In this document: piece after piece, positions 37,060 to 64,000 of the stretch
Position numbering within the stretch: the first letter of the stretch is position 1
Layout: the number at the start of each line of letters is the position of its first letter
Source of the DNA: a virus
Virus record (IMG/VR): IMGVR_UViG_3300028920_000057
Span: 24,897-88,896 of that record
Length of the DNA: 64,000 bases
Reading direction: 5' to 3' (one strand)
Notes under the pieces: generated by a model
Databases searched by the model: none
Seen by the model: the letters and a program-made list of their open reading frames with translations, nothing else
What the model was told of the DNA's origin: nothing
Position numbers and translations under genes: made by a program

Positions 37060-37325
37060 TAAAGTGCCTCCATAATTTCTTTCTTCTCTGCTTCTGTTCT
37101 GTTGTCTCGTTCTTCCATCGCCCTTTGACGCCTTGCTACCTCTTCTTCATCTGTTATCTCGATCTTTACAATGCCATCTTTATTGGTGACTTCAACATGA
37201 GCTTCTTCAGATTCTGTGATAGGCGAGATTGAGCCCCAATTGCGTCTCGGGTCATTCTTTGGCACTTCTTCTTGAGGTTGTGGGCTGCGGTGGTCACTAA
37301 GATTAATAACATTTGTCGGTTGCAT
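37059..37325 (-). CDS. Hypothetical protein (88 aa)
   Basis: GAGGGG RBS; TAATG overlap with the next gene. Confidence 0.55.
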   Translation of the reverse strand: MQPTNVINLSDHRSPQPQEEVPKNDPRRNWGSISPITESEEAHVEVTNKDGIVKIEITDEEEVARRQRAMEERDNRTEAEKKEIMEAL

Positions 37326-37345
37326 AATATGCCCCTCTTTATATG

Positions 37346-37373
37346 AAAAAACCCCTGGCCGAAACCAGGGGTT
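37346..37373 (-). terminator. Intrinsic terminator after the major capsid gene
   Basis: Minus strand AACCCCTGG-tttcgg-CCAGGGG-TTTTTT. Confidence 0.8.
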
Positions 37374-37397
37374 CTTAATATCGCACTACATAGTGGA

Positions 37398-38792: not shown

Positions 38793-38806
38793 GTTTAGAC
38801 CTCCGT

Positions 38807-39640: not shown

Positions 39641-39655
39641 TTTGAAACCTCCTTA

Positions 39656-41212: not shown

Positions 41213-41215
41213 TTT

Positions 41216-48331: not shown

Positions 48332-48343
48332 TGTATTTTCCTG

Positions 48344-49219
48344 TTATTGGTGTACCACCGTGGCTTCTCTGCCAAACACTTGTCGCAACTGCGACTGCGT
48401 ATTATGTATAGCCGCAAGAGATCTCTGTCTCATGGTAGCGGCACCTCTGTTATCAAAGAATTGTCCTCCCATTTCAGTCATAGTGAATTCCTTTTGTTTC
48501 CGTAGTGAGCGGCCATAGGACGCTACCCCTTCGTAAATATCTCCGTACGCAGAAGTAAGACCCATTATCCCTTGAAAGGCAAAAAACTTGGCGGCACCAT
48601 GAAAAGCCAAGCCAGCCCATTCCATCCCCTTAGCCATACCGATACTTCCTTTTATTGGAATCTCTCCCAACAGAGGTAATCTCAATGTCGCCTTGTTAGA
48701 TACCGCCCTCTCAAGAGCTTCGGACATCACTTTGCTTTCACTAAACGCTTGTTCTAAAGCAGCCACTGGCCGGCTTTTGGCAAACATAACACCGCTTTTT
48801 CTAGCTCTCCGTTTGGCTATCTGCTCAAACTGCCCAAAGGTGCGCCTGTCAAATTCCTTGATGCCTGTGGGTCTCCATGCTGTATCGTCAAAAACTCGCC
48901 TAATAATACCACTATGTACACTCTGTCGGCCAATTGCCAGGCCCGGCTGAGTTGTACCAAATATCCTTTGAGCAAAGAACTGTTTCTTGCTTGCCATCTT
49001 GACTTCTGCTTCAAAGGCTTCGCTGGGAACTCCGGCAAACTGAGCCATAGCGCTTGCAGTAAATCCATACGCCCCCCTGGTGGCGAACTGTTCTATCGCA
49101 GTGTTGACGACTAGGTTCCCCGCGAATGATGCGATCCCTTCTTCGCCAAATGGGGTTGCCCATCCCGTTGCCATGAACGATGGGTCGTACTCGGAAAAAG
49201 CAGCTGGATTAATAGGCAT
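48344..49219 (-). CDS. Putative internal virion/ejection protein
   Basis: Basic, Gly/Ala-rich; C-terminal AATMRQRSLAAIHNTQSQLRQVFGREA; GGAG RBS. Confidence 0.5.
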   Translation of the reverse strand: MPINPAAFSEYDPSFMATGWATPFGEEGIASFAGNLVVNTAIEQFATRGAYGFTASAMAQFAGVPSEAFEAEVKMASKKQFFAQRIFGTTQPGLAIGRQSVHSGIIRRVFDDTAWRPTGIKEFDRRTFGQFEQIAKRRARKSGVMFAKSRPVAALEQAFSESKVMSEALERAVSNKATLRLPLLGEIPIKGSIGMAKGMEWAGLAFHGAAKFFAFQGIMGLTSAYGDIYEGVASYGRSLRKQKEFTMTEMGGQFFDNRGAATMRQRSLAAIHNTQSQLRQVFGREATVVHQ

Positions 49220-49227
49220 ATTAGCTC

Positions 49228-51363
49228 CTATACTAGAGCGAGACCGTGAGGCCTGCTGTTAAACTGTTCTGTATGCCGATAGGGGTGTCTATATACATGC
49301 CCCGGCTTATAGTTTACCATTGCACGAGATGTCTGTTGATTATACTTTATCATTTGCGGCTGTCTACTCGGCATTGCCGGACTTGGAGGAATGACTTTAT
49401 TGTTCTGGCTTCCACTCATAACATACGAACCTAGAGCAAGGCCAATACCTCCAATAATCGTTCCTTTAGCCATTTTGCTTTGTCTAATATTCTTTGCCAA
49501 GGCATTGAATGTCTCTGCAAAATAGCCTCCTCCCGACATAACTCCTTTCTCGACCTTTTGAGCAATCTTCTCGCCCGCCTCGTTATACAGCTCGCCGAAC
49601 TTCCTAGTACCAGGCATTAGTCTGTCTCGAATCCCGGTAAAAGCTCGACCAAAAGCCAAGTCTGCATCATAACCAGCGCTGCCGTAAATTCCGTAAGCAG
49701 TTACTCCCAACAAGCCTACGGCTGCGGCCATCGTCGGATGACGCATCTTTTCTCCTGGCCGACCTCTATCGTTCAGGATGTTATGTGTAGTAGATACTGC
49801 GGCATAGCCAAGGAGCCCTAGAGATCCAAATCGTGCAATCTTCCCTCCAAAAGATGAGACTCTGTCCCCCATCACGTGAGAAAGGGATGCTTTGAGATTC
49901 GGATAGCCTGGTACAATCTTGTTTGCATTCCATGTCGCGGCTCCAAGCCCTCCTGCAATCATTGCGTCGACAAATGGGTCACTCGGATCTCCTGCCCATC
50001 TGTCCAGAGTCTCTTGCGCAGGAGACTTACTCATGAAACGATAAGCAGTAAAGCCGCCAAGCATACCTATACCAACGCCCAGCCAGCCCATCTTTCTGCC
50101 AGTCTCGCCCAGAGTACCTTCAAAAAGCGCAACTGTTCTATTAATTTTTATCTTCTCTGAGATCTCCTCGGCCGTATCAGTCATAAACTCGAGCTTCTTG
50201 GTCCTCACGAACGGCTTTCCGTCGTCTCCCAGATAAAGGTTCTTTTCTACATTGGCCTTTTCTGCTCTGGCTCTTTTCTTTTTCTTAGCCTGATCTACCT
50301 GTCCTGCTCGAGTCTGTACTTGAGGAAATCCCGGAGCCACCTTTGTCCAGCTATCCTGCATACCTGCGACGACTTCCCCTTCGTCAGTCACTACGGCGAA
50401 TTGCGTCAGAATATCATTACCAAGGGTATCGGGCAGGGCTGAGTGAGCTGTCTCAACATGAATACGAACGCCATCGATTTCAAGCGTCTTACCAGGACGA
50501 CGTCCGGTATTCGGATTCGCAAGGATATCTTCCTGCTTAAGACTTGGAACAAATCCCTCCGGCACGTTCTCTCCAAAGGGGATCTCTTGAGTGTCGATCC
50601 ATCTCAGCTTGTCATTATGGATCGCATCCTTTAGTCTCGTAATAAGCTTGTATCGTTTGGAGCGTTTATCCTTTATTGTTCTTTGTACTGCGCGGAAATG
50701 ACCGTATAAACGTTGTGCATCGAAATCTCGCACATTGTGTCCAGTAACTGTTCCGGCATGTTCAAACAGATAGATCATCTGTTCCAGCTGTTCGTCTGAA
50801 AGAGCCTTGCCCGCTAAGTCTCCATATGTAATATTGCCCCTAAAAACCTTTTGGGCCCCTTTCTCAATAATTTCGTCAGGCTTTGCTTTCTTATGAGCAT
50901 CACTTATGAGTCGTGGATCTTGTAGCGCATCAAAGTTAAACAGGGTACTGATTTTTTCCCCTGTCTTGACATTGTGTTGAGTAACGTGCATGGAGATCTG
51001 AAACACCGCCTCGGCATTACCAAGGCCGGTAGTTTCAAGATCGAGGAAGATATTGAGAGATCTATTCTTGAAGGATTTAGATTTGACAGTGTCCTGCAGA
51101 TTAAGGAAAGCCTTGTTGTCGTCCAGCCAGCCGGATCTCCTGCCAAACTTATATTTGTAACGGTGGCCACCCTCGGTAATGACGGATAGCGCCTGGTCTT
51201 CTGCCTTGGTCAGTGGCCTCATTACGCCTTTGCGGCCAGAATGAACGTCTGTTGCCTCCGGGTCCCAGACGTAGGGGTAATCTTCACCATAAAGGTGATA
51301 GATAACACTCCCTTCGGTAAACTTCACTCCGCCTTGTTTGGCTGTTTTAGGCCTCTTCGCCAT
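49228..51363 (-). CDS. DEDDh (DnaQ-like) 3'-5' exonuclease domain fused to a Gly-rich membrane-like C-terminal region
   Basis: ExoI IFLDLETTGL, ExoII GHNVRDFD, IDT, ExoIII AHSALPD; C-terminal half has about five GxxxG hydrophobic segments. Confidence 0.75.
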   Translation of the reverse strand: MAKRPKTAKQGGVKFTEGSVIYHLYGEDYPYVWDPEATDVHSGRKGVMRPLTKAEDQALSVITEGGHRYKYKFGRRSGWLDDNKAFLNLQDTVKSKSFKNRSLNIFLDLETTGLGNAEAVFQISMHVTQHNVKTGEKISTLFNFDALQDPRLISDAHKKAKPDEIIEKGAQKVFRGNITYGDLAGKALSDEQLEQMIYLFEHAGTVTGHNVRDFDAQRLYGHFRAVQRTIKDKRSKRYKLITRLKDAIHNDKLRWIDTQEIPFGENVPEGFVPSLKQEDILANPNTGRRPGKTLEIDGVRIHVETAHSALPDTLGNDILTQFAVVTDEGEVVAGMQDSWTKVAPGFPQVQTRAGQVDQAKKKKRARAEKANVEKNLYLGDDGKPFVRTKKLEFMTDTAEEISEKIKINRTVALFEGTLGETGRKMGWLGVGIGMLGGFTAYRFMSKSPAQETLDRWAGDPSDPFVDAMIAGGLGAATWNANKIVPGYPNLKASLSHVMGDRVSSFGGKIARFGSLGLLGYAAVSTTHNILNDRGRPGEKMRHPTMAAAVGLLGVTAYGIYGSAGYDADLAFGRAFTGIRDRLMPGTRKFGELYNEAGEKIAQKVEKGVMSGGGYFAETFNALAKNIRQSKMAKGTIIGGIGLALGSYVMSGSQNNKVIPPSPAMPSRQPQMIKYNQQTSRAMVNYKPGHVYRHPYRHTEQFNSRPHGLALV

Positions 51364-52195
51364 CGGTTACCTCTACTTCTATGACCTTTTCTTTGTCTTC
51401 TTGTGCTTTTTTATTAAGCTCACGTTTAGCGGCGTTGGCAAAGGCCGATACAATGGAACTTGCATCTTTCGTGTTGCCGGCACCAGCCTTTACTCTTGCC
51501 TTTCGTGTTGCCACGAGGTCGTCCAGTAAACGACCCTTTTCCTTCCCAAGCTTGGATATAACGTTGATTCTCGGATTTTCAATTTCTGTCATGATAGGAT
51601 CACCGTTGTCATCTACTCCGACGCATTTTTCTCTAACCGTCTGGGGATCCATCGCCATCTCCCAGTTGGCTCTAAGCTGAAGTATTTCGAGCTCTGCGAG
51701 TTCGTTGATCTGGTTTCGGTCTATAGCCATCATCTCATCATCTGAATCAACCTCGAGTTCCACCATCTTTTGTTTCTTCCAGTTGTCAAACAAATGGGTT
51801 TCAACAGGACATGGTTTTAAAAGAGGAGGGCTAAGCTCTGCCTTAACTACGGGACACATATTATAATATGGGCATTTCTGCCCTAGACAGATCATGGGTA
51901 CCGCAGCTTGATATCCGTCTACCATGCGTCTGGCAAATTGTGCCAGCGTTTTCATGGCAGCTTCTGTAACTACCAGTTCCTGCCCTTCGGGCATAAGCGC
52001 CAGTAAATTTTGTATAATAGGGTCTTTAACTGTCGAAGATCTTGTGAGAGTAAGGACGTTGTCCTGTCCCTTCAGCTGATGCTTCTGAGGACGTTTCTGG
52101 AGATAGGTAGCATTACACCCCGTCGAGGATTCTACGACTGTTGTATCTTCCTGTGGCTTTTCCAACTCGTCGTCTGGGCTGAACTTGTCACTCAT
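51347..52195 (-). CDS. Putative terminase small subunit (Cys-cluster protein)
   Basis: PMIC...C.Y..MCP.......CPVE followed by a helical region ending L.ATRK; near terL. Start revised to ATG 52195 because of a GGAG RBS. Confidence 0.45.
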   Translation of the reverse strand: MSDKFSPDDELEKPQEDTTVVESSTGCNATYLQKRPQKHQLKGQDNVLTLTRSSTVKDPIIQNLLALMPEGQELVVTEAAMKTLAQFARRMVDGYQAAVPMICLGQKCPYYNMCPVVKAELSPPLLKPCPVETHLFDNWKKQKMVELEVDSDDEMMAIDRNQINELAELEILQLRANWEMAMDPQTVREKCVGVDDNGDPIMTEIENPRINVISKLGKEKGRLLDDLVATRKARVKAGAGNTKDASSIVSAFANAAKRELNKKAQEDKEKVIEVEVTDGEEA

Positions 52196-52288
52196 TCTTA
52201 CTCCCATATAAGTAAGCCACCGTGGTTCGCGACACCCCGAAGGGTCTAAGCGTGGTGGCTGTTGAAAAAACATACCATTATTTTCATC

Positions 52289-52312
52289 AAAAAAGACTCC
52301 CCGAAGGGAGCC
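52289..52312 (-). terminator. Intrinsic terminator with a UUCG loop
   Basis: Minus strand GGCTCCC-TTCG-GGGAGTC-TTTTTT. Confidence 0.75.
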
Positions 52313-52404
52313 ATAAACAGTGCCATGACAAAGTCATAAGCAGGTTTTGATACGCAGTCCGTATTCGGACTGACGCTTGGGGCTCGAGTCGTATGAGCCT
52401 CAAC

Positions 52405-52557
52405 TTATTTGAACAAGCCCTTAGACTTGCTTCCTAGACCAGAACCAGGAGTCTGGTTATTGGGAGGAGGCGTGGGCTGTCCCGGAATCTTAACTGGTTT
52501 CGTTGCTGAAAGATTCGGCTGCGTAGCAGCAATCTGATTCGAACTTGTAACTGCCAT
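52405..52557 (-). CDS. Small Pro/Gln-rich protein (50 aa)
   Basis: MAVTSSNQIAATQPNLSATKPVKIPGQPTPPPNNQTPGSGLGSKSKGLFK; GGAG RBS overlapping the lipase stop; below the ORF-track cutoff. Confidence 0.55.
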   Translation of the reverse strand: MAVTSSNQIAATQPNLSATKPVKIPGQPTPPPNNQTPGSGLGSKSKGLFK

Positions 52558-52566
52558 TTTCAACTC

Positions 52567-53343
52567 CTACAAAAGTTTTTCCAATGCTTTTACATAACCT
52601 TCGACACTGTGATCTTTATAAGACCACGGACTGAATGTGCAGACCCAATCTGCGAGCTCGTCGAGTTTCTTCATGTAATAACCTTTACTATGGATTCTGA
52701 CTGGCTTGCCTGCATGCTTATAGATCTTAAACGGAGGTAACGCGGGGACTACGTCATTCTGCAGCCTAATGCGCCATGTTTCATCAATTTGTGAATGAGA
52801 CTTGGCAAACGTCTTATCTCCCGTCTTTGGGGACCCAAAAGTATAACACGCCGAGATATAGCCATAGGCCCTCATATCCATCGCACATTGTTGTGCAAGT
52901 GGTCCGCCCATACTGAAGCCGGCGCAGTAAACTTTTGCAACTTCCAATGACCTCATTGCTTTTTTAATTGTTTTTGCAACAGCATGGTAAGCCGCATGAT
53001 ATCCAAGATGAACCTTGCCTGCGAAGTTATCTCCAGGTTTACGGTTGATAAATTGCGCATTTGTTTTCCAGTCTTTAAGGTTCCATGGCTCTGTACCTCT
53101 GAAGACTATGGCGCATGCTGTCTTTGACAACTTGAAGATACCAACCTGAACATCGAGTTCTTTATTTTCGATCGATTGATACAGTCTTGGATTATTGGCA
53201 ACCTCAATCGACCTTATCTCCGAACAGAGCGTTGCAAGGTCATGTGCCATTTTTACGTCGAGTCCTTTTGGGGGAATCGTTTTATCTTTCCAGCGACCAA
53301 ACCAGCCCGATATTTTTTTCATGATTTTCTTTAAAGCTTGCAT
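52567..53343 (-). CDS. Class 3 lipase (alpha/beta hydrolase, Lipase_3)
   Basis: VFRGT, VHLGY, nucleophile elbow GFSMGG, YTFGSPKTGD, NDVVPALPP, YKHAG, DHS; catalytic triad appears intact. Confidence 0.88.
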   Translation of the reverse strand: MQALKKIMKKISGWFGRWKDKTIPPKGLDVKMAHDLATLCSEIRSIEVANNPRLYQSIENKELDVQVGIFKLSKTACAIVFRGTEPWNLKDWKTNAQFINRKPGDNFAGKVHLGYHAAYHAVAKTIKKAMRSLEVAKVYCAGFSMGGPLAQQCAMDMRAYGYISACYTFGSPKTGDKTFAKSHSQIDETWRIRLQNDVVPALPPFKIYKHAGKPVRIHSKGYYMKKLDELADWVCTFSPWSYKDHSVEGYVKALEKLL

Positions 53344-53507
53344 TATTTACTCCAAAATAATGTTATAAGCCAGTATATTATACACGTAACAGGGGTAAAT
53401 ATCAAGACCGCCCCTGTCATCACTACATTTGTGAGCCTAAAGTGGTAGTCATCCGCATCTCTGGCTTCCTGTAAATACGAGCGAATACCATCGCAAATAG
53501 CTTTCAT
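53343..53507 (-). CDS. Small membrane protein (54 aa, one C-terminal TM segment)
   Basis: GAGGT RBS; MKAICDGIRSYLQEARDADDYHFRLTNVVMTGAVLIFTPVTCIIYWLITLFWSK; TAATG coupling to the lipase. Confidence 0.45.
   Translation of the reverse strand: MKAICDGIRSYLQEARDADDYHFRLTNVVMTGAVLIFTPVTCIIYWLITLFWSK
53377..53405 (-). promoter_or_regulatory. Sigma70-like promoter TTGATA-N17-TATAAT
   Basis: Near-consensus -35/-10 with a 17-nt spacer, about 35 nt upstream of the lipase ATG. Confidence 0.65.
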
Positions 53508-53531
53508 ACAAAATACCTCGTTAGGTTAGAA

Positions 53532-53696
53532 TTAGTTTGCTTGAATCAAGCGGATAAGAAAGATTGCGTCCCGATAGTTTGTCAGACCGTCGCGGACATA
53601 CTTTCTCCAAATGAGATGAGAATTGAGGTGGTCGTATTGGGTAAGGAACTGGGGTGTGCGTTGACGCAGTAAGGTCAACGCATCTTGTTTACTCAT
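53532..53696 (-). CDS. Small hypothetical protein (54 aa)
   Basis: MSKQDALTLLRQRTPQFL...; start overlaps the end of the epimerase gene. Confidence 0.45.
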   Translation of the reverse strand: MSKQDALTLLRQRTPQFLTQYDHLNSHLIWRKYVRDGLTNYRDAIFLIRLIQAN

Positions 53697-54648
53697 AGTA
53701 ATCTTTGTACCATTCAACAAAAGCTTCCACCCCGTTTTCTACCGACACAACCGGTTTATAGCCAATATGTTCGAATAAACTATCCGTACTGGCATACGTC
53801 ATCTTCACATCGCCAAGCTGCATAGGCATAAGGTCTAACAGGGCCTCTTTTCCGGTAGCTTTTTCTATAGCGGCTATGAAGTCCATCAGGCGAACCGGTT
53901 CACCCCGCCCGATGTTGAACACCTTCAGGCCCGACGGCTTGAAGGTCACTCCCTTGATCCCTGCAACGATATCGTCCACGTAGGTGAAATCGCGCATAAG
54001 ATCCCCATTATTATACACAGGAATGGGTTCTCCTGCAAGGATCTTCTTTGTAAAGATAAATAGAGCCATATCCGGCCTACCCCATGGCCCATATACTGTA
54101 TGAAAGCGCAGACCAGTACACTGCATATTGTATAGCTTATTATATGCATGAGCCATAAGTTCGTTGCATCGTTTTGTAACACCGTAAAGAGAAGACTGAG
54201 TGTCGCATTTATGCGACTCTTTAGATGGAAACTCTGTCGAGTCCCCATAAACTGAAGAACTTGACGCATAAACAATGTGTCTAACAGGCCAGTGCCTGCA
54301 GCACTCTAACACATTTAAGAATCCTGTAATATTTGAATCTATATAAGTCTGAGGAGATTCCAAGCTATGACGAACGCCAGCTTGAGCAGCTAAGTGAATT
54401 ACATAATCTATATTACATGCAAGAAAAATTTTCTCTAGCCCTGCTCGATTTTCGAGTGAATCCTGGGTAAACTTGAAGTTGTCATAGATAGTAAGGCGTT
54501 TTAATCTCGCTTCTTTAAGACTGACATCATAATAGTCATTCATATTGTCATATCCAATGACTGTATGCCCAACATCCAGCAGTTTCTTTGCGGTATGAAA
54601 ACCTATAAAGCCTGCTGCCCCGGTAAGTAATATCTTTAGAGTCGCCAT
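53689..54648 (-). CDS. NAD-dependent epimerase, UDP-glucuronate 4-epimerase-like (extended SDR)
   Basis: TGAAGFIG, DNMNDYYDVSLKEARL, HLAAQAGVRHSLE, YASSSSVYG, YGVTK, GLRFHTVYGPWGRPDMA, RDFTYVDD, FNIG, GDV..TYA. Start revised to ATG 54648. Confidence 0.92.
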   Translation of the reverse strand: MATLKILLTGAAGFIGFHTAKKLLDVGHTVIGYDNMNDYYDVSLKEARLKRLTIYDNFKFTQDSLENRAGLEKIFLACNIDYVIHLAAQAGVRHSLESPQTYIDSNITGFLNVLECCRHWPVRHIVYASSSSVYGDSTEFPSKESHKCDTQSSLYGVTKRCNELMAHAYNKLYNMQCTGLRFHTVYGPWGRPDMALFIFTKKILAGEPIPVYNNGDLMRDFTYVDDIVAGIKGVTFKPSGLKVFNIGRGEPVRLMDFIAAIEKATGKEALLDLMPMQLGDVKMTYASTDSLFEHIGYKPVVSVENGVEAFVEWYKDYYE

Positions 54649-55892
54649 ACGTATTGCCCCGATTTTGGTTCCACACAACCTTTGACGTCAATTATTACGT
54701 CATATTCATCAAAGAATCCCTTTTGTTTAAATTGCTTATGGTCAACAGCTACAATAGCTATTGCCATATCCTGCGGTTCGATAGGTTCAATACCAAATAC
54801 CCTTTTCATTGACAGACTGTCAACATACGGATCCATTCCTTCTACTATAACCCCATACTCCTTCAATTCTTTTATTATATCAACTACCTTTGAATTCCTT
54901 AAGTCAGGACAATTAGCCTTAAAAGTAAGACCATAGATATGAAATGCCGCTGAAGCCAAATTCCGGGCCATCATTAACTTTATTGCCTTAGACGCTACAA
55001 AGCGCCCCATCGAATCATTTATCCGTCTCCCGGCCAGGATTAGCTCTGGATTGTACCCTACAGCCCGAGCCTTGTATGTAAGATAATAAGGATCAACACC
55101 TATACAGTGACCTCCTACCAGACCCGGCTTAAAGTCAAGAAAATTCCACTTGGTACAAGCTGCCCTTAAAACCTCAAGAGTGTCAATTTGCAATTTGTCA
55201 AATAGTAAAGCCAGTTCATTCATAAGGGCTATATTCAAATCACGCTGGGTGTTCTCAATAACCTTGGCCGCCTCAGCAACCCTGATAGATGAACACCTGA
55301 ACGTACCAACCTTGACGATCGTATTGTAGACCGCCTCGACTACGTCGAGTGCGTCCTCATTAGAAGCGGATAGGAGTTTGGTAATTTTAGACAAAGTGCG
55401 CCGCTTATCACCAGGGTTGATCCTTTCAGGAGAATAACCAACAAAGAAGTCCTTGTTGTAAACAAGGCCCTCGCTCTCAAGAATAGGAATACAAACCTCC
55501 TCAGTAGTACCAGGATAGACGGTTGACTCATAGACAACTATATCTCCCTTAGATAAGACACTCGCGGCCAGACGAGATGCCTCGATCAAAGGAGTAAGGT
55601 CCGGCTTCTTGTGGTCGTCCACTGGTGTAGGTACTGCCACAATATAAAAATCACACTTGGCTATGTCTTTAGAATCAAAAGTGTATTTGACGTCCGTAGC
55701 AAGCAAGTCCTTAATGGCTACCTCGTAAGTGCGATCAACACCCTCCCTGAGCTCACCAATACGCTGTTTGTTGACATCAAAACCGATAACGCGTCCGAAT
55801 TTACCCAAAGCTACAGCAACCGGCAACCCAACGTAGCCCAAACCAATTACTGCAACCTTCCTGTTATGTCCATTTTTAGGTGTAATGCGCAT
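54636..55892 (-). CDS. UDP-N-acetylhexosamine 6-dehydrogenase (TviB/WbpO-like, UDP-glucose/GDP-mannose dehydrogenase family)
   Basis: IGLGYVGLP, VAVPTP, YESTVYPGTTEE, GYSPERINPGD, AEAAKVIENTQRDLNIALMNEL, TKWNFL.FKPGLVGGHCIGVDPYYL, GLTFKANCPDLRNSK. Confidence 0.93.
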   Translation of the reverse strand: MRITPKNGHNRKVAVIGLGYVGLPVAVALGKFGRVIGFDVNKQRIGELREGVDRTYEVAIKDLLATDVKYTFDSKDIAKCDFYIVAVPTPVDDHKKPDLTPLIEASRLAASVLSKGDIVVYESTVYPGTTEEVCIPILESEGLVYNKDFFVGYSPERINPGDKRRTLSKITKLLSASNEDALDVVEAVYNTIVKVGTFRCSSIRVAEAAKVIENTQRDLNIALMNELALLFDKLQIDTLEVLRAACTKWNFLDFKPGLVGGHCIGVDPYYLTYKARAVGYNPELILAGRRINDSMGRFVASKAIKLMMARNLASAAFHIYGLTFKANCPDLRNSKVVDIIKELKEYGVIVEGMDPYVDSLSMKRVFGIEPIEPQDMAIAIVAVDHKQFKQKGFFDEYDVIIDVKGCVEPKSGQYVWRL

Positions 55893-55920
55893 TCGTGTAG
55901 TCTCCCAGAAGTTTTACAAC

Positions 55921-55949
55921 ATTATACCCATATAGGGTAGAAAATGCAA
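55921..55949 (-). promoter_or_regulatory. Sigma70-like promoter TTGCAT-N17-TATAAT at the head of the minus-strand block
   Basis: Perfect -10, 17-nt spacer, about 30 nt upstream of the dehydrogenase ATG, which has a GGGAG RBS. Confidence 0.7.
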
Positions 55950-56025
55950 ATAATATATTTTAAGACAAAGACGCGCCCGGATCCGAAAAGCTGACATATA
56001 TGAGCCCCCCGGGGTTGTTTTCCGT

Positions 56026-56122
56026 GCGTGTGATCGAAGCGATATTTAAGCGTGCGCGTAACCTGAAGGACACTCGCTCCCGCGTGTGATCGAAGCGATA
56101 TTTAAGCGTGCGCGTAACCTGA
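56026..56122. repeat. Perfect 41-bp direct repeat, two copies (56026-56066 and 56082-56122)
   Basis: GCGTGTGATCGAAGCGATATTTAAGCGTGCGCGTAACCTGA twice, 15-nt spacer, in the non-coding strand-switch region. Confidence 0.95.
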
Positions 56123-56297
56123 GCCTATAGGCGAAGGCAGGTGGAGTGTTTCCGTCCGCGTGACCATTTTCTCTCTTTCTCCTTTATACGGACTTTACTT
56201 TCACCGTTTCGAGCCCCTGGGTTAGTTATTACTTCTTTACCGTACATGGGGAGTACCTTTAATTATCTTTTTAATCTTTTTACTATTAGGAGTTATT

Positions 56298-56525
56298 ATG
56301 ATTACTTCAGCTATTAACCTCAAATCTCTTCCCTTTATTAACTTTGATGAAATTGGTTTAAATTGTATGTTTGATGCTGATTATGCATTTATTAGAGAAT
56401 CTAAAAGAACAGGTAAACGTTTTATTCACACATACCATGATAAGAACGAATTCAAACAAGTAATAGTAGAAGAAATGTCAGTACCTAGTACTGCATTCCA
56501 TAAGAAGTTCTTCCGTGTTATCTAA
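56298..56525 (+). CDS. Small early-type hypothetical protein (75 aa)
   Basis: AGGAG RBS, AT-rich codons, followed by a hairpin cassette. Confidence 0.7.
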   Translation: MITSAINLKSLPFINFDEIGLNCMFDADYAFIRESKRTGKRFIHTYHDKNEFKQVIVEEMSVPSTAFHKKFFRVI

Positions 56526-56542
56526 TATACCTACTTGTATAT

Positions 56543-56580
56543 AAAGGGTACTACTATGTAGTACCCTTTTTTTATTTAGT
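56543..56580 (+). terminator. Hairpin/T-tract cassette copy 1
   Basis: AAAGGGTACTAC-TAT-GTAGTACCCTTTTTTTATTTAG. Confidence 0.75.
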
Positions 56581-56658
56581 ATACCCTCAATAGCTATATA
56601 CCTGTAGTAGCGAACCCCTATATACCCTTATTAGCCACCCTTATTATGGAGCAGTATC

Positions 56659-56724
56659 ATGACTCGTTATATCCCCTTTATTATTATTGCCACTGTTACA
56701 GTATGTGCTATGTGTATACTGTAA
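56659..56724 (+). CDS. 21-aa hydrophobic micropeptide
   Basis: GGAG RBS; MTRYIPFIIIATVTVCAMCIL; the only RBS-led ORF I found between two cassettes. Confidence 0.5.
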   Translation: MTRYIPFIIIATVTVCAMCIL

Positions 56725-56755
56725 GTACCTCTCTACTATAACCCCCCCCTACTAT

Positions 56756-56793
56756 AAAGGCCCTTCCTATAAGGGCCTTTTTTATTTAGAACG
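56756..56793 (+). terminator. Hairpin/T-tract cassette copy 2
   Basis: AAAGGCCCTT-CCTAT-AAGGGCCTTTTTTATTTAGAACG. Confidence 0.75.
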
Positions 56794-56832
56794 AACCCTT
56801 TACTATCATTAACCTATATATGGAGCAGTGCT

Positions 56833-57003
56833 ATGAAAGACAGAAAGAACATGACCAATGAAGAAGTGATCGCCCACAACGTAGCAGTAACCAAGAAACT
56901 GGATCACCCTGACGACAGAAGGGCGATGATAGCAGGCGCTATTAAAAAGCAGCCCCACAAGAGGGCTCTGTGGGAGGAGGTCCTGAGAAGGGCTCTCTCA
57001 TAA
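56833..57003 (+). CDS. Small early-type hypothetical protein (56 aa)
   Basis: GGAG RBS; MKDRKNMTNEEVIAHNVAVTKKLDHPDDRRAMIAGAIKKQPHKRALWEEVLRRALS. Confidence 0.65.
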   Translation: MKDRKNMTNEEVIAHNVAVTKKLDHPDDRRAMIAGAIKKQPHKRALWEEVLRRALS

Positions 57004-57016
57004 GACCCCCCTATAG

Positions 57017-57055
57017 AAGGGCCTCCTTATGGAGGTCCTTTTTTATTTTAAACGG
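57017..57055 (+). terminator. Hairpin/T-tract cassette copy 3
   Basis: AAGGGCCTCC-TTAT-GGAGGTCCTTTTTTATTTTAAACGG. Confidence 0.75.
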
Positions 57056-57111
57056 ACCTTACTATTGGGAACTTGTCCATCCCTTACCATTTTTTTATGA
57101 AAGGAGCTACT

Positions 57112-57492
57112 ATGCTCGCAGTTGGTTTTACACTTTTTCTCATCGCTTTTGTAGGAGCTATGTTCCTGCAAACAAAACGGTACGCATCTATGGTGCGTAA
57201 AACGATCGAAATTAACAACAAACAGGCCAGAGACCGGGACCTGAAGAACGTCGAGCGATGCTATCAGAATCACTTGATTCGCTTAGTCCAAAAGCAGCAT
57301 CGTATGATGCGCCAGATGGACCGTCAAGACCGTGCTCTCATAAGAGAGATGGTTAAGAACGGAGAAAAAAGAAATCGCGCCAAAACACAGTGGATGATCG
57401 ATCACCTTGGCCCGAAGTCTGTGTTAGAGAAAAGGCACGACACAGAAGGAAAACGATTCGAAGCATATTCATTATGCGAAGGGAGGATGTAA
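57112..57492 (+). CDS. Hypothetical protein with N-terminal TM segment
   Basis: AAGGAG RBS before ATG 57112; MLAVGFTLFLIAFVGAMFL followed by a basic helical region. Confidence 0.65.
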   Translation: MLAVGFTLFLIAFVGAMFLQTKRYASMVRKTIEINNKQARDRDLKNVERCYQNHLIRLVQKQHRMMRQMDRQDRALIREMVKNGEKRNRAKTQWMIDHLGPKSVLEKRHDTEGKRFEAYSLCEGRM

Positions 57493-57725
57493 TGGACCAG
57501 ATACAAGACGCCCTGATCGATCTCGTCAAAGAGGTCGAATACGAACTAGAAGACAAAGGTCTGGCATCATGGGATGCAGACCAGGCTGAGGCCTTCGGGC
57601 CTTTGGTCGAATTCATGGCAACTCTGGAAGACGCTGTCTTCCACATCAACGTACTGGCTGAGTACTCCTTTGACAACACGCCTTCGGTCATTGCCTCTAT
57701 GGCCTTGACTGAATCCAAGGCATAA
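57492..57725 (+). CDS. Small acidic hypothetical protein (77 aa)
   Basis: GGGAGG RBS and TAATG coupling at 57490-57494. Confidence 0.65.
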   Translation: MDQIQDALIDLVKEVEYELEDKGLASWDADQAEAFGPLVEFMATLEDAVFHINVLAEYSFDNTPSVIASMALTESKA

Positions 57726-57737
57726 TCCCACCACACT

Positions 57738-57776
57738 AAGGGGCCCTTAATTGGGTCCCTTTTTTATTTTAAACGG
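57738..57776 (+). terminator. Hairpin/T-tract cassette copy 4
   Basis: AAGGGGCCC-TTAATT-GGGTCCCTTTTTTATTTTAAACGG. Confidence 0.75.
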
Positions 57777-57912
57777 TCGTTATTGGCCCCTCATGGTTAT
57801 CGGTCGCGCCATGAGGTATATGAGCGCGTAAGTCTCGTCAGTTGATTAAGTTCAACGTGAGCTGCTGCATAGGCCACTTTATTAACTCCCATTATCTTGG
57901 AAAGGATTAACC

Positions 57913-60900
57913 ATGGGAAAAGCAATTGTTAAAGCCCTGAATATGGGCATCAGCTTTGCACACCTGCTCGTGCTCACGCTGTTTGGTCTTTTTGAGAGCA
58001 GAAAGGAGAACTGGGTCGGCAGGGGCGTAGTTCTCGACAAAAACAACCTTCCTGCAGAAATAAAAAGGGCGCTTACGGGCGTCGGCAGAAAACCGCTTTA
58101 TCGCAAGATGAAGCGCAACATCGTTACTGCAGGAGCTGAACTCGTATACTTCTGCAGTAATCCTGACCAGTTCGCTGGTCAATACGGACTCACATGTGGA
58201 TTCTTTGAATGTGAAAACATTCTGGGGATCAATGTGTACAAAAGAGTTGTTGGTGCACGCAAAGTGTCTGGGGGTCCAGTGCCCTATCAACAACTAGAGT
58301 GCAAGGTGTCGCCCTGGTTTGATGAGAATGGTAAACGAAAAATAGTACTTATGTACAAAGCCTTTGTCAAGCTAAATGGCAAGGGCCGAATGAAACATCC
58401 CATTGAGGAAAGTCTTGGAGGGCGCTATGTCTACATGGTGTCTGAAAAGAACACCAGATACATGGACGTTAATGTTTACTCAATCACCTGGGAAGAAGCG
58501 GCCAAGGTCGGCTTCCGAAGAGATGAAGACGGTAAGATCAAAGGCGCGAAAAAGATCCTGCGTCGAATCTTCCGGCACACCGGAGTCCCAGAGGTCACCC
58601 GGAACATGATTGCTGCGGGAGGCTACGTGGATCCCGATCGTGTAGCGATTAACTGGGATGTCCATAAAGATGGTTGTGCCCTGATGACAACCAAGTTCGC
58701 CAATCGTATTGCCAGAACTCAAGGCAAGGTTGTCGAAATGAACAATGGCACTGTCACGCTCGATGGCAGAATTAAACAGGGAGATACTGCCATGGGGCAG
58801 ATGATGGGTGGCACGTTTAAGAAGATGATGTGGATCTTCGTGGATAAGATCCAAGGTCATCCCGAAGCCGACATCATGCTGTATGGACGTCACTTTGTGT
58901 CCAAAGCCCACGTACAGCCCATGTTCAAGGGTTGTCACGTCAGCTTCTGGAAACACCGCCACAACTTCAGGGCTACCGTGAATCTCGGTATGGCCTCAGT
59001 TCTGGAAGGGGTTGGCAAAGCCATCATCCAGGATCTCAAGGTTAGGATCGACGAACTCAAGGCTGATCCTGAGCAGGTCCTGGTAAATGATTCCAGGATG
59101 CCTCTGATAAGAATGCTGAAGAAATTCGGCGTCAAAGAAGAGTATGTAAAACTCATGACTCTTGTCAGGGCTCGTGGTGCCCTCATGTCTAAGTTCAAGA
59201 TGTTAGACGGTACTGAGAAGAAGTATCGTTGGCGTCTTCGCGGAACTGGCTCCGGCCATATCATGGGGTATCACCATGAGACCATGAAGGGTGTCATTCC
59301 TCAGAAACAGGCAAGGTGGCTTCAGAGTCTTGAAGGCAAGAGCTTCAAAGAACTGAATGGTGTATGTCCCGTTGTGATAAACAAAGACGGCACCCTGCTG
59401 TTCACCACCCTGAAGATGGCAGACACTGTGTTCCACCATCGATTTGATACTGCCGACTTTGATGACACAGCTCACGTTATCAAGGTTGGTGAAACGGAGC
59501 CCAAGCGGTTCAAGGCTGTGATGTATCGTTTCCCTGTAAGGAGAAATGGCGTTATCTATGCTGACGTATGGGACTCCAATTCTGATAGGGATTGGACGAA
59601 GTACGACCTGGAAATTATCTGGGGCAAGTACTCTAACACAGAAGATCCGTTCGAATGCGCTCCCAAGGATGGGAACGTTGTAGTAACTGATCCTGAAGAC
59701 ATAAAGGCGCTTGAAGCCAAGTATGTCAAGGCATGCGAAGAATATGCTGCCCAGGAGGCTGTTACGGCTGAAGAGCTGCGGAAGGAGATAACCAAAAAGG
59801 AAGAGGAGCTGATCAACTTTGGGGCCTGGTTCCTAATCCACCTCGCGTGCAGGTTTATCCTGAATTATCATAGAAAGTTTGGGATTCGGTTCTCAGTCGG
59901 GAGAGGGGCGCTCGTGATAACTATCGCAAGCATATCTCCTTCTGACGTGCTAGACTGGTCTTTAGGTCTGGCTAATCTCCCGGAAGACCTTACCAGAGAG
60001 GGTCTCCTCGAAGGTATGGAAACCTTTAAGGACGCCGTCAGAAACGGAGAGCTTCTGGCTCCCAGATCTATGGCTCGTGTCAACCCTCGTGCTCTTGGAG
60101 TCTGGTCTGCAGATGAAGAGCAGTATGCGGATTTTGAAGGTGAAGAGTATAAGGAAGCCCTAGCCTCCAGAACCTTTGAGGATGAGTATGAACAGGACAA
60201 TGTCCAGATTCAGGAGATACTCAAAGAGTTCAAAGCCACCATTGACAATCAGATTGATGTCGCGCTTGATGCGGCAGAAGAGCTGATCTGTCCCGGTGGT
60301 GGAGATTGGGACGACGTAAACTCCGGGGCCTGGCACCTTGGCAAACGCATTGGCGCCATCCATTGGCAAATGGGTGAACTGGCCAAGAACCTGAATAATC
60401 TCGGTCTGTCTAAGGCTGAGAAAAACGAGTTCTGGCGTAAGCGCCAAACAGCGTTAAATCATCTGACTCGACAAATGATAGACAACTGCCTTCCAAAGGC
60501 TGGTTCGTACAAATCTCGGCGTAGATATGTCGAGACTCTTGGATGGCATTTATTCGAATTCATGGTGATAGACCGGAAGTACCGGTATTTCACCCATGAT
60601 CGAGGCTTTGACCTGGCCTGTATGGGCCTGATCAGAGAACGTGCCGGTATGCTGGGGGCGTTCAAGTGTCAACGCCACCGTACTGGGCAAAAGTCGAGGT
60701 GGTATGACCAGGCCGTGAAAACGGTAGTAGGTCTCACCGATGTGGCATTCAGCATGATTGGCATTTCAGAACACAATGCCAAAAACACCCTGAAGCTCAC
60801 TCGGGAGATCAGGTGGTGCAACAGAATTGCTGGTCGTGATGCGGCTGGCAATTTCCTGGATGAAGATCAGATTGATGCTCTGAATGAAAAAGAGCTTAAA

Positions 60901-61047
60901 AGTCAGCGGGATTGGGATCAGCGTCCTGCGGACATCAACCCTGAACTCGTCAAAGAAGTGAACGAATTCATTAAGTCCTGGTACGAGAATGAGTTTGTTA
61001 AGCAGGACAAAACAGAAGAGGAGGATGAAAATGTCTCATCTATTTGA
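57913..61047 (+). CDS. 1044-aa protein, possible divergent single-chain two-barrel RNA polymerase (YonO/cellular-RdRP-like)
   Basis: The ORF is clear (AAGGA RBS). KDGCALMTTKFANRI...GQMMGGTFKKMMWIF...ADIMLY..HFVSK resembles the DPBB-B pattern DG.g.i...a..Q.R..g.KG..DI.l...K; ADFDD (59452-59466) is followed by YRFP. Function is inference. Confidence 0.45.
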   Translation: MGKAIVKALNMGISFAHLLVLTLFGLFESRKENWVGRGVVLDKNNLPAEIKRALTGVGRKPLYRKMKRNIVTAGAELVYFCSNPDQFAGQYGLTCGFFECENILGINVYKRVVGARKVSGGPVPYQQLECKVSPWFDENGKRKIVLMYKAFVKLNGKGRMKHPIEESLGGRYVYMVSEKNTRYMDVNVYSITWEEAAKVGFRRDEDGKIKGAKKILRRIFRHTGVPEVTRNMIAAGGYVDPDRVAINWDVHKDGCALMTTKFANRIARTQGKVVEMNNGTVTLDGRIKQGDTAMGQMMGGTFKKMMWIFVDKIQGHPEADIMLYGRHFVSKAHVQPMFKGCHVSFWKHRHNFRATVNLGMASVLEGVGKAIIQDLKVRIDELKADPEQVLVNDSRMPLIRMLKKFGVKEEYVKLMTLVRARGALMSKFKMLDGTEKKYRWRLRGTGSGHIMGYHHETMKGVIPQKQARWLQSLEGKSFKELNGVCPVVINKDGTLLFTTLKMADTVFHHRFDTADFDDTAHVIKVGETEPKRFKAVMYRFPVRRNGVIYADVWDSNSDRDWTKYDLEIIWGKYSNTEDPFECAPKDGNVVVTDPEDIKALEAKYVKACEEYAAQEAVTAEELRKEITKKEEELINFGAWFLIHLACRFILNYHRKFGIRFSVGRGALVITIASISPSDVLDWSLGLANLPEDLTREGLLEGMETFKDAVRNGELLAPRSMARVNPRALGVWSADEEQYADFEGEEYKEALASRTFEDEYEQDNVQIQEILKEFKATIDNQIDVALDAAEELICPGGGDWDDVNSGAWHLGKRIGAIHWQMGELAKNLNNLGLSKAEKNEFWRKRQTALNHLTRQMIDNCLPKAGSYKSRRRYVETLGWHLFEFMVIDRKYRYFTHDRGFDLACMGLIRERAGMLGAFKCQRHRTGQKSRWYDQAVKTVVGLTDVAFSMIGISEHNAKNTLKLTREIRWCNRIAGRDAAGNFLDEDQIDALNEKELKSQRDWDQRPADINPELVKEVNEFIKSWYENEFVKQDKTEEEDENVSSI

Positions 61048-61486
61048 GGTTGAGTCAAAGAACAAAAGCGGCGTGGTGACTATCCGATCACTGCGCCGTG
61101 TCAAATTCGGTGATGGCGGTAGAGATATCGTCACCATCGATATTGGCTGCAAAGAAGGGTCCAAGACACCCTGGATCAGATATAACCGCAATAAGGGCAA
61201 AAGCCACAAAGGGTGTGAGCTCAAAGGGGCGAAGTGGTATGCTTCGTTCCAGCGGTTCTATCTGGAACAATTCACGGAAGACATGATCGACACGGAAGTC
61301 GAACTTGGACCCACGGTTAAAATTAAGAAGAGAGCAGATGCCGCCGATGTGGTACCTGTTGTAACCAAAATAAGAAAAGACGAGCTCGTTCCTGAACTCA
61401 CCATTCAGGAAGAGCCAGTCGCTGAAGTTGAACTCATGGAAGAGTTCGACGATGGAATCATGGAGGTCGATGATATTGGTATGTAA
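61031..61486 (+). CDS. Hypothetical beta-rich protein with acidic C-terminal tail
   Basis: GGAGG RBS before ATG 61031; overlaps the end of the 1044-aa gene; ends EEFDDGIMEVDDIGM. Confidence 0.65.
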   Translation: MSHLFEVESKNKSGVVTIRSLRRVKFGDGGRDIVTIDIGCKEGSKTPWIRYNRNKGKSHKGCELKGAKWYASFQRFYLEQFTEDMIDTEVELGPTVKIKKRADAADVVPVVTKIRKDELVPELTIQEEPVAEVELMEEFDDGIMEVDDIGM

Positions 61487-61538
61487 TTTAAATCGGAGGT
61501 CCTTCGGGGCCTCCACATTAATAACAAAGATCTGACTG

Positions 61539-61582
61539 AAAGGCCTAGAGCTTATGCTCTGGGCCTTTTTTATTTTAGACGG
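61539..61582 (+). terminator. Hairpin/T-tract cassette copy 5
   Basis: AAAGGCCTAGAGC-TTAT-GCTCTGGGCCTTTTTTATTTTAGACGG. Confidence 0.75.
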
Positions 61583-61626
61583 CATTATGCCGTTACTATC
61601 ATTTAATCTTTTATAGGAGAATTGTT

Positions 61627-62031
61627 ATGAGAAAGATCAATGCAACCCCGCTGGAAGTCCACGAAAACATGAAAGCGCTGGCACTGAAGCATTGGGACGC
61701 TTTAACCCACACAAATGGTTATCAGATATCCAGTATCAAAGCAAAACTGGTCGCGTTGGAAGACAAGCTGAACGAGGGGTGGAAGAAGGTCAACTTTAAG
61801 AACGAGAACGTCTTCTCCCGCCTGATCAAAGAACTCGCAGTTGCGAAATCCTATCAGCTTGATGACGAGCCTCATGGAAAGGTCCTGAATGCGGGCAGTA
61901 AGTGGTATCGGATCTCCATCCTTGATGGAGACGTGACCTTCTACGAGTGGGACGGCCTGACAGATAAGGAGAGGGATCGCAGAAAAGGGATGTTCAATGT
62001 CCGTGGCTCCTTCGAAGGAGGTTGCCACTAA
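61627..62031 (+). CDS. Hypothetical protein (134 aa)
   Basis: AGGAG RBS; flanked by cassettes. Confidence 0.7.
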   Translation: MRKINATPLEVHENMKALALKHWDALTHTNGYQISSIKAKLVALEDKLNEGWKKVNFKNENVFSRLIKELAVAKSYQLDDEPHGKVLNAGSKWYRISILDGDVTFYEWDGLTDKERDRRKGMFNVRGSFEGGCH

Positions 62032-62051
62032 TCAACCTGATCTAACTAAAT

Positions 62052-62094
62052 GCCCTGGAGCATTATGCTCTGGGGCCTTTTTTATTTTCTACGG
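62052..62094 (+). terminator. Hairpin/T-tract cassette copy 6
   Basis: GCCCTGGAGCA-TTA-TGCTCTGGGGCCTTTTTTATTTTCTACGG. Confidence 0.75.
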
Positions 62095-62169
62095 ACCTCC
62101 AAGTGTTAACATTTGCAGCAGGAGGCTCTAAGCAGGAGGTCTTTTAAGGGGGGGGTATTTTTGCTCCGC

Positions 62170-62290
62170 TCGCGTCGCTCGCTACGTATTCGCTCGCGTC
62201 GCTCGCTCAAGTCCTCTCGCGTCGCTCGCGTCCTGTTGGTCGCGTCGCTCCCAACTAGGGTCGCGTCGCTCCCCTACGCTCGCGTCGCTC
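62170..62290. repeat. Array of six TCGCGTCGCTC 11-mers
   Basis: Copies start at 62170, 62194, 62217, 62240, 62261 and 62280; intergenic. Confidence 0.9.
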
Positions 62291-62396
62291 GCGTATCCCG
62301 AAATAACGGTGAAATCTTAATTCCAAACAGAAATAAAGGTGAATTAAGAAAAAAGAGTGTTTGAAGTTTTTTAAAACCTTAACAGAAGGAAGACCT

Positions 62397-63041
62397 ATGA
62401 TTAAAAGTAAAGTAACCGGAAATGTCGTGACGTCCGTTGACGTGTCCAAGATTGCAGTCCGCAATCAGGGCATTGCCGAAACCGCAGCAAAAGACGGTGC
62501 ACTTGCGTGTCGTCTGTGGATTTCGAATGGCCGTGAGGCTACTGACAAATCCGCCGGCTCCAAGGCAGGTATTCGTCTGCAGCTGTCTCTCGTAGACGCT
62601 GAAAAGAATGAGCTTCTGGACTTTGAGTCCAATGAAGACGCAAGCTTCGTCAACAAGATGGAGCAGTTCTTCTGCGGCACACGTCCCCAGGGAGCTCCCC
62701 GTTCCAAAATCAACTATCAGCATGCGGGTGTCCATACCAGGGCAGTCGTTGACGGTAAGCCGTACGAGATGCAGATTCCCCTGTATGAAGATGCCGGTGA
62801 AGGCCTGAAGCTGATGGGCAATATCGTTATTACCTTCGAAGCTAAAGCTGCCAAGACCAGCCTCGGCGAAAACATCCCCGTAACCTCCGGGTTCGGCGAT
62901 AACCTGGCGTCCTACTTCAAGCGGATAGAAGAAGAACAAGACGCAGAAGCGGAACGCCTCGAACAGGAACTCAAGCAGAAGCAGAGCACCGAAGTGGTTG
63001 ACCCTGATTCAGCAAAGAGCACCGTTGAATACGGTGCATAA
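62397..63041 (+). CDS. Hypothetical protein (214 aa)
   Basis: GAAGGA RBS before ATG 62397; acidic helical C-terminus. Confidence 0.7.
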   Translation: MIKSKVTGNVVTSVDVSKIAVRNQGIAETAAKDGALACRLWISNGREATDKSAGSKAGIRLQLSLVDAEKNELLDFESNEDASFVNKMEQFFCGTRPQGAPRSKINYQHAGVHTRAVVDGKPYEMQIPLYEDAGEGLKLMGNIVITFEAKAAKTSLGENIPVTSGFGDNLASYFKRIEEEQDAEAERLEQELKQKQSTEVVDPDSAKSTVEYGA

Positions 63042-63171
63042 TCACCCTAGGGAGAGTAAGACTTGGACATAGCTACGCATCCGCTCATTGGAAGCTAGGT
63101 ATAAGGCTACGAGCTGTTAAGGCAAGTCTTGCTCCCCCTTTTTTTCACACCAGTTATCAGAAAGAAATATC

Positions 63172-63741
63172 ATGAACCTCGAAGCCATCATCAAAAGTAC
63201 TTTCATGGCCAACCCGAAGCACGCTGCCACCCTCGTCGGCCAGCGTCCCTTTGGGTCGCAGTGGTCAGAAGAGTATACGCCCGAAACCGAAGATGACCTC
63301 GCTGCCATTTTTGCTGAAGCCCAGGAAATCCCCTTTGAAGGGATGCCCGCAGACACAGCTATCCCCATCTGCCGTTACTTCCGTCTTGAAGCGGGTGAGA
63401 TTTGTGGCAAAGAACGTTTTCTCCTGACAAATGACATCGCTCCCGACATGGAAGTCGTAGTGAGAGCCGGAGCCCATGGCCTCGAGCTTGCGCTGACCAA
63501 CCGCGATGACGACCTTGACCGCGAAGTTTCCAAGGCATGGCTCATTGTTGGGCCGGCTGAAGACGAAGAAGGCAACAGCCTTGCTGAAACCGAGAATCCT
63601 ATGATGGTCTGGACTGCCTATCCCGGCAGCATCACTGCCAGACTACCGAAGGATTTCTTTGAAAAACACAGCCTCGTTGAGGGCGACACAGTTCCTCACG
63701 AGATACTGTCCCAATACCCCAACTGTGCAGTTAAATACTGA
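63172..63741 (+). CDS. Hypothetical protein (189 aa)
   Basis: Clean ORF with codon usage like its neighbours; LIVGP...MVWTAYPG motif. Confidence 0.7.
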   Translation: MNLEAIIKSTFMANPKHAATLVGQRPFGSQWSEEYTPETEDDLAAIFAEAQEIPFEGMPADTAIPICRYFRLEAGEICGKERFLLTNDIAPDMEVVVRAGAHGLELALTNRDDDLDREVSKAWLIVGPAEDEEGNSLAETENPMMVWTAYPGSITARLPKDFFEKHSLVEGDTVPHEILSQYPNCAVKY

Positions 63742-63892
63742 TTTTCCATAGCTACACTCTTAGTGCAGAGATAAAGAGCAGAGTGTCGCAGTAAGAGAAA
63801 AGACTCCAATCCTTTCAACCAGGTTACCTGTCCTGGATAAACCTGCTCAACAGGCTTTTTATTATCACACCATTTATTATTAAGGAAATATC

Positions 63893-64000
63893 ATGAACAA
63901 ATGGCTCACAATCTCAATCGTCAGCGGAGCAGCTACCGCTGGTTTTCTTGCTGGCAAATTCTCAGACCAGATTGTAAAAGGCTCCAAAGCAGCCGCTGGT
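63893..64000 (+). CDS. Partial CDS with hydrophobic N-terminus
   Basis: AAGGA RBS; MNKWLTISIVSGAATAGFLAGKFSDQIVKGSKAAAG runs off the window. Confidence 0.5.
   Translation, partial: MNKWLTISIVSGAATAGFLAGKFSDQIVKGSKAAAG

Follow-up and report, generated by a model that had tools for sequence, protein, structure and literature searches.

In a 64,000-nucleotide stretch of viral DNA (the window, that is, the whole of the DNA analysed here, which forms the final 64 kb of the 88,896-bp IMG/VR virus record IMGVR_UViG_3300028920_000057), we examined an open reading frame (ORF) at positions 57913 to 61047 on the plus strand, which is open throughout, starts with an ATG behind AAGGA and encodes a protein of 1044 amino acids, P0001. 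The best explanation for this protein, to which we assign a probability of roughly 60%, is that it is a single-chain two-barrel nucleotide polymerase of the QDE-1/RDR/YonO/P23-45 gp64 kind, and most likely an early, non-virion, DNA-dependent RNA polymerase (RNAP) with a remodelled barrel A. Two-barrel polymerases are known as a class and the new part is the non-canonical layout of the active site, in which a D-x-D-D loop precedes the R-x-P motif, so that the usual order is reversed. Since the family is so small and its members come from uncultured marine-sediment phages, this is a claim based on prediction. Near-identical DNA was found in two marine-sediment metagenome runs, and no RNA run was among the listed sequencing runs holding such DNA.

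When 1.84 billion representatives were searched exhaustively with phmmer, six were returned at E≤0.001, the query included. The five relatives are P0002, which is about 44-46% identical to P0001 and is encoded by a related phage, L001, on a syntenic contig; P0003, P0004 and P0006, each about 21-29% identical, with P0004 on a 105-kb and P0006 on a 185-kb contig; and the fragment P0005. No relative was found in IMG/VR scans with P0001 to P0004, in 50,697 phage genomes searched by tblastn with these two of them, P0001 and P0004, as queries or in a scan of genome contigs with P0004; two more word-index searches for homologues, with alignments, turned up no additional sequence, and an ESM Atlas search gave no usable match. 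Neither the protein nor the family profile drew a meaningful match from Pfam (no family at E≤1), PHROGs or the PDB sequences, and PF05183, the Pfam RdRP family, had no match over the whole record, while a Bacillus subtilis control genome matched below the family cut-off. Most likely, P0001 belongs to a new, tiny family of single-chain two-barrel polymerases, of which a handful of sequences are available.

Conservation was judged across the full-length members (P0001, P0002, P0003/P0009, P0004 and P0006; 21-45% identity), and the invariant columns are mostly residues of catalytic type, which shows that the motifs did not arise by chance. They comprise D253, K304 and G325-x-H327-F328-x-x-K331 in the region resembling barrel B; P486, D515, D517, D518, R539, P541, G546 and D593 in the region resembling barrel A; and, beyond the barrels, G637 and P676-S-D678-x-L-D681 towards the C-terminus. 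The initial annotation had proposed a polymerase with a rearranged catalytic barrel, reading DTADFDDT where DFDGD would be expected, and this sequence is indeed found at residues 512-519 (59446-59469). D512 varies among the full-length members, so the metal motif is D-x-D-D and not D-x-x-D-x-D-D. The candidate metal-binding loop itself, D515-F-D517-D518 (59455..59466, +), is placed between a helix and a strand. The R-x-P was also said to follow the Asp motif, and it does: the YRFP at residues 538-541 (59524-59535) puts R539 21 residues past D518, within an R-x-P-x4-G turn between two strands (R539-F-P541-V-R-R-N-G546, 59527..59550, +). When the conservation of both motifs was checked, as had been suggested, each proved invariant. 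A D-x-D-x-D motif occurs nowhere in the 1044 residues, and R539-x-P541 is the only conserved R-x-P, none being present upstream of the Asp motif. What is invariant upstream is P486 (59368..59370, +), 29 residues before D515, and the residue two positions before it is V/H/H/V/I among the homologues, not Arg.

The N-terminal half contains a barrel-B-like region (residues ~240-335, 58630..58917, +) that was modelled with low confidence (predicted local distance difference test, pLDDT, 40-68). Here the pattern DGC...Q...KK...DI...K had been reported; all of its elements are present (D253-G-C255, Q296, K303-K304, D320-I321 and K331), but Q296 and D320 are not conserved. D253 (58669-58671) and K304 (58822-58824), on the other hand, align with the invariant Asp and Lys of the YonO family, in agreement with the likeness to barrel B of YonO and QDE-1 noted earlier. 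In an hhalign comparison of the family profile with a five-member YonO-family alignment, the single best local alignment fell on the barrel-B signature (P=0.034), with H-x-D253-G...F-x-K304-G/M on YonO H-T-D249-G...V-K271-G, whose residues are invariant in the YonO family. D253 would thus correspond to the barrel-B Asp represented by Rpb2 D837 and QDE-1 D709, and K304 to one of the basic residues comparable to Rpb2 K979 and K987, with the invariant K331 (in G325xHFxxK331, 58885-58905) as a second candidate; QDE-1 has Gln in place of K979 (PMC9508822). In a restricted hhalign run the best local alignment of the DxDD was on the DxDGD of the YonO family, without significance, and the family profile gave nothing against single YonO or against the 1857-residue tail protein described below. 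YonO, from the Bacillus prophage SPbeta, is a phage-encoded single-chain DNA-dependent RNAP of 839 amino acids, similar in size to P0001; its HxDGC..M and xKG motifs align with those of P0001 in register, although the profile match reaches only P=0.034, there is no similarity outside the motifs, and YonO carries RSP ~43 residues before DNDGD.

The fold was approached with AlphaFold. The full-length model, for which the alignment had six rows, was of poor quality (pLDDT 47) and its Foldseek list meaningless; a model of the cropped residues 225-740 had a mean pLDDT of 55.8, with 77-92 over residues 445-564, the region of the Asp and R-x-P motifs. With the cropped model the nine best of 350,542 PDB chains were all QDE-1 (best E=0.022), and the only long matches among 48,161 chains belonged to three unrelated two-barrel RNAP families, namely QDE-1, RDR2 and P74-26 gp62 (8F5M), a close homologue of P23-45 gp64. 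The best matches were those to the RNA-dependent RNAPs QDE-1 of Neurospora and RDR2 of plants (PDB 2J7N, 7Y7P, 7EU0, 7RQS, 7W84); they spanned 216-243 residues, from barrel 1 through barrel 2, at 13-14% identity, and in one of them (7y7s_B) model residues 13-420 fell onto QDE-1 683-1120. The long matches listed included no PolD, crAss gp66 (6VR4) or multisubunit-RNAP barrel domain. In BFVD, uncharacterised proteins from uncultured Caudovirales took the first two places (probability 0.98 and 0.99). The structural scores are weak one by one, and by our own rough estimate it is very unlikely that three two-barrel families would be the only long matches of such a model by chance. A predicted structure lacking double-psi barrels, or a DFDD/RxP that varied among homologues, had been named as grounds for giving up the proposal; since the matches are to two-barrel enzymes and both motifs are invariant, it stands on either count. 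P0001 most likely has the overall two-barrel (double-psi beta-barrel) fold of the solved members.

The order of the invariant residues points the same way: barrel-B Asp, Lys and Lys, followed by Pro, the acidic triad, a conserved helix and a conserved acidic loop, which is the order found in single-chain two-barrel polymerases (PMC2919709; PMC9508822). Between the barrels, a helical connector (residues ~352-432, 58966..59208, +) occupies a clamp-like position; QDE-1 and RDR2 share with P0001 the succession of barrel-B Asp, Lys, connector and acidic loop. Past barrel A lies a hydrophobic helix, FGxWFLVHLAARxIL (residues 636-656, 59818..59880, +; pLDDT 55-75), with the invariant G637, and then P676-S-D678-V-L-D681 (59938..59955, +), the most conserved stretch of the family. 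By their order, the helix would fit a bridge helix and PSDxLD a trigger loop; in QDE-1 a functional trigger-loop Asp, D1116, lies ~30 residues past the bridge helix (PMC9508822). The initial annotation had singled out VGRGAL...SDVLD in this part of the protein, and both elements exist (residues 662-667 and 677-681), but only the second, as PSDxLD, is conserved.

It might be argued that P0001 is not a polymerase at all, that its conserved acidic and basic motifs serve some other early function, be it that of a nuclease or a metal-dependent or structural one, and that the QDE-1-like model is an artefact of running AlphaFold on a shallow alignment. The low pLDDT of both models and the weak structural scores would agree with this, as would the departure of the metal motif from the universal DxDxD and the fact that no polymerase family could be linked to P0001 significantly by sequence. 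We consider it quite unlikely: an artefact would have to yield long matches to three unrelated two-barrel RNAP families and to no others among the 48,161 chains, the invariant residues mirror the two-barrel catalytic core in both type and order, and the profile alignment, which is independent of the model, falls on the catalytic barrel-B motifs of YonO. Palm-domain readings (T7/N4-like, reverse-transcriptase YxDD or primase) were considered and dropped: the K...YG-like spacing is not conserved among the homologues, the elements around the motifs are predicted as barrel-like strands, and the sequence searches brought up no palm polymerase family.

Barrel A is where P0001 departs from its solved counterparts. 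The DxDxD and the preceding Arg-x-Pro gate belong to an eight-residue core reported to be common to all known two-barrel RNAPs (PMC2919709). Barrel A of the solved enzymes is built from two beta-beta-alpha-beta halves, the first of which is closed by the R-x-P Pro-gate (PMC10770324 Supplementary Fig. 7); the R-x-P lies 33-45 residues before the DxDxD (PMC10770324; PMC9508822), and the DxDxD precedes the last strand, the domain ending ~7 residues past the last Asp (PMC10770324). In QDE-1 the corresponding residues are R962, P964 and D1007-1011 (PMC9508822), with the R-x-P 45 residues before the first Asp of DYDGD, in contrast to the R-x-P that comes after the last Asp in P0001. At the corresponding distance upstream of its Asp loop, P0001 has no R-x-P, P486 alone being present. 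In the barrel-A-like region (residues ~444-593, 59242..59691, +), the cropped and full-length models give the same order of elements: strand 446-452, helix 464-472, hairpin 485-489/495-498, helix 500-511 and DxDD, then strand 519-529, strand 532-538, R539-F-P...G546 and strand 547-554. Thus, the Asp loop is followed by three strands, and the two helices enclose only two. Because solved barrels end so soon after the last Asp, barrel A is likely to have been remodelled in some way, and the details given below favour a gate element that has shifted behind the Asp loop. The permuted or remodelled barrel A of the initial annotation is therefore upheld as likely with regard to remodelling, while a clean circular permutation is unproven. 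The barrel might be circularly permuted or re-threaded, or it might keep the canonical course and carry an additional hairpin.

That barrel A is truly permuted or re-threaded, with R539-x-P541 as a functional Pro-gate, is a doubtful proposal, which keeps the enzyme class of our preferred explanation, is compatible with it and differs only in the topology claimed. The Arg of a cis-proline loop would then read the 2′-OH of the incoming nucleoside triphosphate from the strand after the Asp loop. The spacing of R-x-P-x4-G and the hydrophobic strand behind it equals that of QDE-1 R962-S-P964-A-H-F-P-S-D-I (identical as R-x-P-x4-(S/G)-x-I, up to D970-I); the place where the canonical R-x-P strand should be (residues 473-484) is a variable linker, reduced to ~7 residues in P0003; P486 has no preceding Arg; and the surplus of strands past the DxDD speaks for the same change. 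Several observations weigh against a displaced gate, including the one in our preferred explanation. The 29 residues from P486 to D515 are near the 33 that separate Pro and Asp in bacterial beta′, and CPVVINKDGTLLF resembles beta′ FxPVLxEGxxIQL by eye, so that a canonical barrel with an added hairpin also fits. Restricted hhalign runs favoured neither element as Pro-gate (scores 6.5 vs 6.3), and the models provide only the order of secondary-structure elements along the chain.

By analogy with solved relatives, from which every step is taken, a two-barrel enzyme of this layout would work as follows. The N-terminal barrel B would supply D253 and K304, and possibly K331, the helical connector would act as the clamp, and the carboxylates of D515, D517 and D518 in barrel A would hold the catalytic Mg2+, on a metal loop that lacks one residue relative to the DxDxD universal elsewhere. 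At the customary Pro-gate position upstream only the Pro, P486, would be left, and the missing active-site Arg would likely come from the R539-x-P541-x4-G546 turn between the two extra strands past the Asp loop. Helix 636-656 and PSDxLD 676-681 would stand in for bridge helix and trigger loop.

A further question is which substrate such an enzyme uses. P0001 could be a two-barrel polymerase following the logic of PolD, as a DNA polymerase or primase, or an RNA-templated one like QDE-1 and the RDR enzymes. PolD, the only two-barrel DNA polymerase, lacks the Pro-gate Arg (GLAPHT vs RxPxLH), and its archaeal DP2 subunit retains the Pro, as the P0001 family does at P486 (PMC7708050). As the one precedent for loss of this Arg, PolD makes a different sugar specificity a live rival. 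PolD also needs just two of the three acidic positions (PMC7708050), the nearest structural matches of P0001 are RNA-templated enzymes, and no replicative polymerase is visible on the partial contig (CheckV completeness 46%). However, the PHT with the steric-gate His and the NxDGD of PolD (PMC7708050) are both missing from the P0001 family, in which P486 is followed by V/C/A/F/V; none of the three Asp varies, and neither does the nearby Arg-x-Pro. QDE-1 serves eukaryotic RNA interference; P0001 is a phage early gene product with no match to the Pfam RdRP family. The absence of PolD from the listed structural matches carries no verdict. All characterised phage members of the clade are DNA-dependent RNAPs, namely YonO (PMC5467207), gp64 and gp96 (PMC10770324) and gp66. 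Another substrate for P0001 is improbable in our view.

This record of the phage enzymes is one reason to favour an early non-virion DNA-dependent RNAP; the others are the place of the gene and a candidate partner. The minus strand is given over almost entirely to structural genes, including those for the major capsid protein, the terminase and three giant tail proteins, and the coding strand flips at ~56 kb. On the plus strand a few small ORFs precede its first large gene, 57913-61047, which heads the early side within a two-gene unit between hairpin cassettes. P23-45 and N4 likewise have their second polymerases at the start of the early genes, across from those for structural proteins. The non-virion RNAP of P23-45, gp64 (P74-26 gp62; PDB 8F72, 8F5M), is paired with a virion RNAP fused to the tape measure, gp96, and was proposed as an RNAP for its canonical DxDxD signature (PMC10770324). 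P0001 has no detectable sequence similarity to gp64, differs in host and genome size, and is known from sequence alone. A 1857-residue protein of the tail module (18568-24141, -) recalls this pair: its R1250-W-P...D1288-F-D-F-D (residues 1250-1292), with DFDFD 36 residues past RWP, follows the two-barrel RNAP signature in its canonical order and spacing. This protein had no PDB sequence match and shows no similarity to P0001. BLASTP against a 1372-residue tail protein returned nothing, and this protein contains neither DxDD nor DxDxD.

A bolder scenario can be put forward tentatively. A phage lineage may have rebuilt barrel A, a catalytic barrel that does not otherwise vary from bacteria to eukaryotes, with a D-x-D-D loop and with the ribose-sensing Arg-x-Pro moved behind it by re-threading or permutation. 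In this phage the resulting enzyme would come second in a cascade like that of P23-45, after a polymerase with canonical motifs that is delivered with the tail and turns it on.

In the searchable literature we found no paper that pairs 'DxDD' with 'double-psi', and reviews treat DxDxD as the signature. If the proposal is true, a natural family that retains the fold with a shorter metal loop and a displaced gate would show how much the active site tolerates, would bear on the evolution of double-psi barrels by duplication, permutation and strand exchange, and would add to the phages known to deliver or produce a non-T7-type polymerase of their own. Searches for the DxDxD motif, the route by which gp64, gp96 and crAss gp66 were reached, would overlook such enzymes.

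The polymerase gene is followed by an ORF of ~153 codons (61025..61486, +), which overlaps its stop codon; the overlap also occurs in phage L001. The product is 39% identical over 98 amino acids (E=2e-18) to that of L001:13032-13457, matches no Pfam family, and may serve the polymerase as an accessory or specificity subunit. Two hairpin cassettes bracket this unit: one with TTTTTTATTTTAAACGG (57738..57775, +), ~140 nt upstream of the polymerase start codon, and one with T6ATTT (61538..61575, +), which closes the unit. They belong to a set of six strong hairpins on the plus strand (56543-56580, 56756-56790, 57015-57050, 57738-57775, 61538-61575 and 62052-62090) with stems of 9-14 bp and loops of 3-6 nt, each followed by an exact TTTTTTATTT (6 vs 0.5 expected), and are confined to the early strand. 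L001 has exact copies of the cassette at both equivalent places (9852 and 13520), the upstream hairpin having a different stem sequence. The cassettes could be terminators, promoters for a phage polymerase, or both.

The leader at 57825-57905, which separates the upstream cassette from the polymerase start codon, was aligned with L001 9915-9990 and contains the blocks TAAGTCTCGT.AG..GATTAAGTTC...TGAGCT.CT...TTTATTAACTCCCATT, conserved beyond what the protein identity would lead one to expect; they may represent a promoter or a regulatory element of the 5′ untranslated region. The initial annotation had envisaged a three-stage programme like that of N4 or P23-45, with the virion enzyme, P0001 and host-type late promoters, but the promoter counts lend it no support. 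Sigma-70-like sites were not enriched over shuffles on the late side (37000-56400; 39 vs 32.9 +/- 5.9 expected) or in the early region (55800-64000; 14 vs 9.0 +/- 2.7). A few 11/12 matches precede minus-strand genes (e.g. 53405-53377), and one of 10/12 was noted at 55950-55921. Where late and early strands diverge, the intergenic region has at ~56028-56125 (+) a ~40-bp sequence, GTGTGATCGAAGCGATATTTAAGCGTGCGCGTAACCTGA, seen by eye to occur twice in tandem.

Among the minus-strand genes, a 711-residue protein of the head and packaging block (49228-51363, -) begins with FLDLETTGL..., which by eye resembles a DEDD 3′-5′ exonuclease, and ends in a glycine-rich hydrophobic region. The largest tail protein, of 2801 residues (10163-18568, -), carries a staphylococcal-nuclease (SNase) domain at residues 278-392 (Pfam, E=6.5e-8), and its C-terminal part matches a PHROG labelled endolysin.

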